Assembly: GCF_044324875.1 (NCBI RefSeq) | Contig: NZ_CP172187.1 | Strand: one strand, 5' to 3' | DNA: 64,000 bases | Source: Escherichia coli | Lineage (GTDB): Bacteria > Pseudomonadota > Gammaproteobacteria > Enterobacterales > Enterobacteriaceae | Part shown: positions 2,927 to 3,406 of the stretch, piece after piece | Layout: every line of letters starts with the position of its first letter | Position numbering within the stretch: position 1 is the first letter of the stretch | Notes under the pieces: generated by a model | Database searches by the model: none | Told to the model about the DNA's origin: nothing | The model's input: only the letters and a program-made list of their open reading frames with translations | Program-made: the position numbers and the translations under genes

Positions 2927-3013
2927 GGTAATTTTTTCGCATTCTCCAAAAACGGTTTTTAATATACAAAAATCATTATTTATCAAATACATTATTTTAT
3001 GAAAATAAATGTT

Positions 3014-3250
3014 TTATGTGACCTTTTCGTCTTCCAGAATTTTATACACAGTGGAGCGGGCAATACTGAGTTGTCGGGCTATATCCGTTGCGCCAGTCCC
3101 CTGGCAGTGGAGCGCCAGCACACTGTTTCTGCCGATGGTGCGCCTGCGACCAAAGCGGATACCTTTCAATTTTGCTTCCAGTCTACCTTCATTCGTGCGT
3201 TCCAGTATTCTCTGTCGCTCGGCCTGGGCTACAGCCGACAGAATGGTGAC
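3014..3250 (-). pseudogene. serine recombinase (resolvase) C-terminal remnant, catalytic N-terminal domain missing
   Basis: ORF 3014-3292 encodes only the resolvase C-terminal HTH ([20 protein letters not shown]) preceded by non-homologous residues; no room upstream for a catalytic domain. Confidence 0.55.
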
Positions 3251-3406
3251 CACCATAAACGTACACGTCAGCACACGACAAACATGCTTCAAAAATCGAC
3301 TAATTCGCTGTGTCGGAAATTTCGGCGGTTCCGGCGTAGAACCCCCTATTAATATTTGTTTTGTTTTAGGTTCTATTCAACATAGGTCATCCTAAAATAC
3401 ATTAAA

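Follow-up and report, generated by a model that had tools for sequence, protein, structure and literature searches.

A tnpR remnant beside the partition locus of IncK2/Z-type Escherichia coli plasmids: probable right part of a decayed Tn3-subgroup sugar transposon joined to a fragment of a miniature element

The window, i.e. the whole stretch of 64,000 nucleotides of Escherichia coli DNA analysed here, begins with a sugar module. Its outermost gene, coding for a DUF7916 protein and named "haloacid dehalogenase-like hydrolase" in some RefSeq records and "PEP phosphonomutase" in others, reaches into the window with its 5' part of about 183 codons (1-549, minus strand), while the rest lies left of the window start (L004 5250-6179; L004 denotes plasmid pPK8275, on which a position equals the window position plus 5630). 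It is followed by the gene of a PTS EIICB sugar permease (546-1943, minus strand; Pfam PTS_EIIC, E=5e-65, and PTS_EIIB, E=1e-11) and by that of a GntR/HutC-type regulator on the plus strand (2177-2926; Pfam GntR, E=6.5e-17, and UTRA, E=1.6e-28). The latter is convergent with a remnant of the resolvase gene tnpR (3014-3256, minus strand), from whose stop codon its own is separated by an AT-rich spacer (2927-3013, 19.5% GC). Beyond the remnant, the right-hand end of a miniature element occupies 89 nt (3257-3345, minus strand), or 95 nt if six bases shared with tnpR are included. It abuts AT-rich plasmid backbone (3346-3479, 27% GC; homologous to IncI-gamma/K1-type plasmids), which leads to a partition (par) cassette on the minus strand (3480-4405).

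The remnant was delimited by tblastn, Pfam and nucleotide alignment to Tn3 tnpR. Read on the minus strand, positions 3256 to 3017 of the window, followed by a stop codon at 3014-3016, correspond to residues 106-185 of a Tn3-type TnpR. A tblastn comparison of the 185-residue TnpR of the Tn3/Tn2-type blaTEM transposon with the 64 kb reveals identity at 66 of these 80 residues (83%, E=1e-38), the second match being just noise (E=7.4). Pfam recognises HTH_7 (PF02796) with 48.5 bits (cut-off 23.8, E=9.7e-13) but only the last 32 of the 145 positions (112-143) of the resolvase N-terminal domain PF00239, with 22.0 bits against a cut-off of 23.3. What is retained is the end of the E-helix together with the HTH DNA-binding domain; the catalytic domain is missing. 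Nucleotide identity between the remnant and Tn3 tnpR amounts to 77.5%, with a BLAST alignment that extends 44 nt past the tnpR stop, to position 2970. At the other side, resolvase homology ends exactly at the ATG of codon 106 (3254-3256), and the DNA upstream of this codon is without similarity to any resolvase. Residues 1-105 of TnpR find no tblastn match in the window; in related contexts their sole match is an unrelated resolvase with 39% identity. Judged by these alignments, the fragment is real, far beyond what chance would produce. The remnant forms part of a 92-codon open reading frame which starts with TTG (minus strand, 3014-3292), or of 80 codons if counted from ATG, and bears the RefSeq label "helix-turn-helix domain-containing protein".

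An earlier note on this DNA had recognised, at 3014-3250, only the C-terminal HTH part of a serine recombinase, with nothing upstream which could encode the catalytic domain. Both observations are borne out, apart from a right limit placed 6 nt too short, and the missing 5' half, which the note proposed to seek elsewhere in the replicon, gave no tblastn match within the 64-kb window. Alignment with intact resolvases shows homology from codon 106 onwards and no alternative full-length frame. A full-length resolvase using an alternative start is ruled out, since the upstream DNA is a miniature element and no homology precedes codon 106. The complete tnpR of p135-2, a plasmid matching at 100%, does not supply the missing 5' half and is part of another blaTEM transposon, with just 77.5% identity in nucleotide sequence; the tnpA of p135-2 is part of that same separate transposon.

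The far side of the sugar module is bounded by a canonical Tn3-subgroup right terminal repeat (IRR) of 38 bp, GGGGTTTGAGGTCCAGTGGAACGAAAACGTACGCTAAG, which in sequence-matched plasmids lies 476-513 bp left of the window start (window -513 to -476; L004 5117-5154, L001 8688-8725). It agrees with the Tn3 repeat at 31 of 38 positions, faces inward to the operon with its GGGG end pointing outward and is located 95 nt past the DUF7916 stop. Its left flank, ..GGCTGGTA, is the same in all 16 sugar-module loci checked (16/16), two deletion derivatives of the pMbl488 type included. The resulting order, namely IRR, 84 nt, cargo, about 45 nt of Tn3-like spacer and the 3' part of tnpR, is that of Tn3. As positions 2970-3013 still align with the DNA downstream of Tn3 tnpR, the cargo boundary must fall inside the AT-rich spacer. 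A block comprising gntR, the PTS gene and the DUF7916 gene is syntenic in Citrobacter, Rahnella and Erwinia, where these loci lack TnpR, and the homology to the syntenic operons spans only L004 5244-8548, from stop to stop, ending at both outer stop codons. The sugar module (GntR, PTS EIICB, DUF7916) and the remnant thus belong to a single unit: the module is cargo of the same Tn3-type transposon and not an independent block placed by chance beside a resolvase remnant. Of the transposon hallmarks one repeat, IRR, is present and its partner IRL absent; there is no tnpA between IRR and the par locus, and res and the 5' part of tnpR are missing too. Directly left of IRR we observe a PerC and AraC-type regulator block (L004 3932-5111), a separate mosaic module which is 99% identical in many poultry E. 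coli plasmids without the sugar transposon and whose homology stops 6 nt before IRR.

With respect to base composition, the region harbours two separate AT-rich blocks, 2927-3013 and 3346-3479 (26.9% GC), between which the remnant (53% GC) and the 89-nt transposon-end fragment (49% GC) closely approach the window average of 52%. The AT-rich stretch which the note had placed between sugar module and partition cassette as a sign of recombination or deletion is accordingly present, in the form of two blocks, but the junction itself is not AT-rich: the break at 3251-3256 is situated in coding DNA of about 50% GC, and 2927-3013, rather than being a scar, is a spacer which belongs to the transposon itself and lies where the convergent genes gntR and tnpR end.

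The nearest relatives of the sugar operon come from Citrobacter, Rahnella and Erwinia, where they reside on chromosomal contigs or in draft assemblies. They show 73-75% nucleotide identity, and for two Citrobacter genomes the proteins are 78-89% identical; PTS EIICB alone reaches 86-89% amino acid identity to the Citrobacter and Rahnella genes. A search for the cargo donor yielded nothing closer than these relatives in the three genera. Capture of the operon from an Enterobacterales genome, in the position which blaTEM holds, is the best explanation for its origin. The IRR together with 84 inner nt occurs on its own, at 100% identity, in pK2044-type Klebsiella plasmids (L026 5001-5122, pK2044), similar virulence plasmids being among 375 matched Klebsiella records; this solitary occurrence implies that the transposon skeleton circulated independently of the sugar cargo.

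With Tn3/Tn2 (blaTEM; Tn3 subgroup) the sugar element shares the order of tnpR, cargo and right terminal repeat, in addition to the resemblance of TnpR residues 106-185 (83%), of the repeat (31/38) and of the 44 nt past the tnpR stop. In contrast to these transposons it carries the GntR/PTS/DUF7916 operon in place of blaTEM, its nucleotide identity of 77.5% marks it as a distinct element and, devoid of tnpA, res, the 5' part of tnpR and IRL, it is a non-mobile remnant. Other truncated tnpR remnants from enterobacterial plasmids and chromosomes (P0012, next to IS26 and an ars operon; P0013; P0006) likewise consist of a C-terminal fragment followed by passenger genes, but their alleles are 89-91% identical on the amino acid level and both cargo and truncating events differ; P0012 has an IS end at its break while the remnant in the window has none. 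No intact parent transposon turned up in PLSDB (near and distant search), among complete E. coli genomes, in 100,044 species genomes scanned for an exact 34-mer, in 10 contexts of the exact GntR protein or around those resolvase alleles that come nearest (91% identity), where the cargo is a different one. Since no intact parent was encountered, we infer the pre-deletion state and the amount of lost DNA from the surviving parts.

Upstream of codon 106 the DNA is not a cognate res but belongs to the miniature element. In its complete form this element measures 264 bp, has Tn3-family terminal inverted repeats of 32-38 nt (GGGGTTCTACGCCGGAACCGCCGAAATTTCCG...) and does not encode a transposase; in the complete copy at L006 5832-6095 the 32-nt arms are 94% complementary. 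Complete copies are found inside ISEc8 orfA (L005, L006) and, in L082, on a contig from a metagenome. Another one (L088 3001-3263) immediately precedes the same par locus, at the same backbone position and with the same right flank, CCCC/CTATTAATA (here and below, the slash marks the joint). In the window, the terminal inverted repeat of the fragment lies at about 3308-3345 on the minus strand with its outer GGGG at 3345, and the repeat occurs once, against an expectation of 0. At least 80% of the 264-bp element is held by 53 PLSDB plasmids. Solo repeats of 32-39 nt are seen in hundreds of plasmids, among them Klebsiella virulence plasmids (near iutA) and plasmids of Vibrio, Proteus, Yersinia and Pantoea. 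We also considered whether the repeat at 3308-3345 could be the missing IRL. This assignment was rejected: the repeat is identical to IRR at only 17 of 38 positions, plasmids which lack the sugar transposon have this fragment as well, and the flanks disagree, with TGGTA left of IRR and CTATT right of 3345. The differing flanks furthermore indicate that the hybrid segment did not transpose as a unit.

Tn3-derived miniature elements (TIMEs) are short (50-500 bp), possess Tn3-type inverted repeats and have no transposase (PMC4133298; PMC13367494). Segment 3257-3345 fits this description in being the end of a 264-bp, plasmid-borne element with Tn3-family repeats, without transposase and known from at least three contexts. 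It deviates in that none of the five MITE sequences listed in Table S2 of PMC13367494 contains its repeat strings, that no direct repeats of 5-6 bp were recovered around the three complete copies in L006, L082 and L088, and that the interior is not res-like; the window, moreover, has only a 3' fragment. The left flank in ISEc8 and the right flank at par have the 6 nt CTATTA in common, an agreement that is no more than suggestive. Searches of the literature for the repeat strings and for IncK2 papers on this region gave nothing relevant. Provisionally, the sugar-cargo transposon as well as the 264-bp element seem to belong to known kinds, as members without a name.

On the backbone side, the partition cassette consists of a ParA-type ATPase gene (3779-4405; Pfam MipZ, AAA_31, CbiA and ParA) and the gene of a 100-residue partner (3480-3782), both in agreement with the RefSeq annotation of relatives. 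A tandem repeat finder detects 6.4 copies of the 8-bp unit AAGATAAC at 3405-3455, followed by inverted copies at 3457-3472, which together probably constitute the centromere or operator. The longest run of this unit varies between plasmids, amounting to 6 in the window, 8 in pPK8275 and in pMbl488, 9 in L088, 11 in L083, 13 in p135-2 and 14 in pRM7190-2. IncI-gamma/K1 plasmids are without the miniature element, and their homology to the window begins at 3343-3346. A third Tn3-family end, of the GGGGTCCACTTGGAAAAGGGAAATTTTCCCACGCTAAG type, is observed at or near the same backbone position (L007 5878-5915, L083 about 2960-3003, L088 2880-3000). In the IncI-gamma/K1 plasmids it abuts TATTAATATTTG directly. 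L088 and L007 have it in opposite orientations, a hint that transposons have rearranged the DNA beside par more than once. Evidently, this spot next to the par centromere has collected several Tn3-family ends.

Comparison of the window flanks with the complete miniature-element copies (L005, L006, L082, L088) and with Tn3 tnpR places the recombination junction at 3251-3256. The tnpR side reads ...GGTGACCACCAT and the element side ...GGCACCATAAACG; the six bases CACCAT, corresponding on the minus strand to ATG GTG (Met106 and Val107), are common to both. The break thus interrupts tnpR in codon 106/107, more than 300 nt from the expected position of res. Neither at nor near 3251-3256 is there any IS terminal sequence. 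Smith-Waterman comparison with the res regions of Tn3 and of Tn21-type transposons reveals no res-like sequence in 3257-3307 or in the interior of the element, the scores (z=0.7-1.3) being reached by 10-23% of shuffles.

We consider it very likely that the segment from about -513 to 3256 is the right part of a decayed Tn3-subgroup sugar transposon which was joined, by an illegitimate deletion, to the miniature-element fragment beside par. The ancestor would have been a transposon of the Tn3 subgroup organised as IRL, tnpA, res, tnpR, cargo and IRR, of which this segment would be the right-hand 3.77 kb, and the 264-bp element would have been in place beside the par locus before the joining. One illegitimate, microhomology-assisted deletion with its left endpoint in tnpR codons 106/107 and its right endpoint about 90 nt inside the miniature element would then have removed IRL, tnpA, res and tnpR codons 1-105, along with whatever backbone lay in between and roughly 170 nt from the left of the miniature element. 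The product, with one end, no transposase and no res, would be immobile and would have been inherited vertically in the IncK2/Z lineage. The six base pairs shared between tnpR and an unrelated element argue for an illegitimate deletion and against recombination by res and resolvase, although a microhomology of only six bases lends modest support to this mechanism. The comparisons show what the two partners are, where exactly they meet, the terminal repeat, the extent of the cargo and a single origin; a deletion rather than another illegitimate way of joining, the proposed order of events and the lack of expression are inferred.

The earlier note had suggested a past site-specific recombination or deletion. 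Truncation of the gene by a deletion or rearrangement is in keeping with our results, whereas the site-specific variant conflicts with the break in codon 106/107, the missing res-like sequence and the 6-bp microhomology. Resolvases of the Tn3 family are indeed able to excise DNA flanked by direct repeats of res, and several Tn3-family ends are crowded at this spot. Nevertheless, that a resolvase-mediated exchange between two res sites produced the junction is very improbable: res lies upstream of codon 1 while tnpR is interrupted in codon 106/107, neither 3257-3307 nor the element interior holds anything res-like, and the expected product of such an event is a hybrid res site instead of a gene cut short. 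It is unlikely as well that IS26 or a similar insertion sequence inserted into tnpR, deleted the DNA next to it and disappeared afterwards, by loss or by recombination. IS26 is abundant in relatives, the unrelated E. coli remnant P0012 was cut at Val107 by an IS6-family element, and the same tnpR allele is found in L011 cut 18 nt further in, beside foreign sequence at a contig end. Yet tnpR passes directly into the interior of the miniature element with no IS end at 3251-3256, and precise, traceless loss of an IS is rare. Regarding L011 (positions 1-75 of an E. coli draft contig), where the allele is cut at LSAVAQ, the break may reflect yet another rearrangement or merely a repeat at which the assembly stopped. 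The possibility that codon 106/107 is a general hot spot of tnpR, since P0012 was cut there too by its IS6-family element, was discarded, and we take the agreement as coincidence.

One observation counts against the preferred reading of a single illegitimate deletion because a purely random deletion does not predict it. In IncK2 plasmids without the transposon (pTMSA992, i.e. L002, and L080) the 3' end of a ProQ/FinO-family gene is joined to the miniature element at 3254 (..AATCAT/AAACG), and this junction (L002 4450-4457) falls within 0-3 nt of the tnpR junction (window 3251-3257), the sole indication of something non-random at this locus. Homologues of the ProQ(A) gene of pTMSA992 diverge too far to show a truncation at its junction. 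Conceivably, CAT/AAACG in the miniature element is a recombination hot spot, either prone to form structure or a site-specific target, which the tnpR and ProQ/FinO junctions used independently. Two different left partners joined within 0-3 nt of one another are in line with this idea, as are a weak hairpin at 3277-3260 which starts 3 nt from the junction and an interrupted palindrome, ATGGTG-GT-CACCAT, on the tnpR side. On the other hand, only two independent events are available, and endpoints within 6 nt of each other would arise by chance in some 3-7% of cases (a rough estimate for random endpoints in the segment of about 175 nt shared with L007); the site resembles no recombinase site we recognise, and the later deletion in pMbl488 ends elsewhere, at 3325. 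With two events the agreement of the ProQ/FinO and tnpR endpoints may be coincidence, and we regard the hot spot as quite unlikely. Equally doubtful is the extended proposal of an undescribed TIME, namely the 264-bp element which IncI-complex and F-type plasmids have next to their par centromere, acting as a recombination platform with CAT/AAACG, near a small hairpin, as preferred breakpoint. If it were true, different accessory modules (the sugar transposon here, the ProQ/FinO block in other IncK2 plasmids) would have been joined to the partition locus at CAT/AAACG. In our reading as a deletion, the locus is a case of ordinary plasmid decay, a truncated Tn3-subgroup transposon abutting a TIME fragment, with no sign of a new mechanism.

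As to its function, the remnant is most likely a silent pseudogene. It has no catalytic domain and no res, a sigma-70-like promoter upstream of it on the minus strand and a Shine-Dalgarno-like sequence in front of its ATG are both lacking, and derivative plasmids have lost it. Alternatively, it could be retained as an expressed small HTH protein of 80-92 residues which binds res-like DNA and acts as a regulator or inhibitor of incoming Tn3-type elements. Isolated C-terminal domains of resolvases, e.g. that of gamma-delta resolvase, can bind DNA, the frame is open over 92 codons from TTG or 80 from ATG, and the RefSeq name refers to a helix-turn-helix domain. Being located downstream of the par operon on the same strand, the fragment might conceivably also be transcribed by read-through from it. 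The absent promoter and ribosome-binding site, however, together with the loss of the fragment from pMbl488-type plasmids without apparent cost, render a functional small protein highly improbable; the copies vary too little (99.4-100% identity) for selection to show. In annotation, the fragment should be designated a pseudogene of tnpR, and the sugar operon should be assigned to the transposon as its cargo, not to the backbone.

Across the junction, the window matches IncK2/Z-type plasmids of poultry E. coli (p135-2, pPK8275-82kb, pTB-nb3 and others) with 97.5-100% identity. It is not p135-2 itself, whose 8-bp array beside par has 13 copies against 6 here. An identical junction of 61 nt occurs in 5 PLSDB plasmids, in 10 of 11 independent draft assemblies and, among 5,426 complete E. 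coli genomes, in 4, but never on a chromosome. As all sampled carriers exhibit the same junction and the same repeat flank, it goes back to one event inherited in the IncK2/Z lineage. This lineage is common, given that 788 blocks of the assembly collection have the exact GntR protein in their index. In pMbl488 (L084 2677-3010) and in the Klebsiella pneumoniae plasmid pC (L086), IRR is retained together with some 300 nt from the 3' end of the DUF7916 gene, which run directly into window position 3325, inside the miniature-element repeat and with a GG microhomology. Some 3.5 kb, including the PTS gene, gntR and the tnpR remnant, are gone. This join is a later, nested deletion, and it indicates that the region decays by deletions of this kind. 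The relevance of these findings lies mainly in annotation and plasmid epidemiology, apart from the addition of one more Tn3-subgroup transposon with a metabolic instead of a resistance cargo. The unique junction (GGTGACCACCAT/AAACGTACACG) and the repeat flank can serve as clonal markers of one IncK2/Z sub-lineage, found mostly in poultry E. coli, and allow related plasmids to be ordered from the complete miniature element via the tnpR junction to the pMbl488-type deletion.
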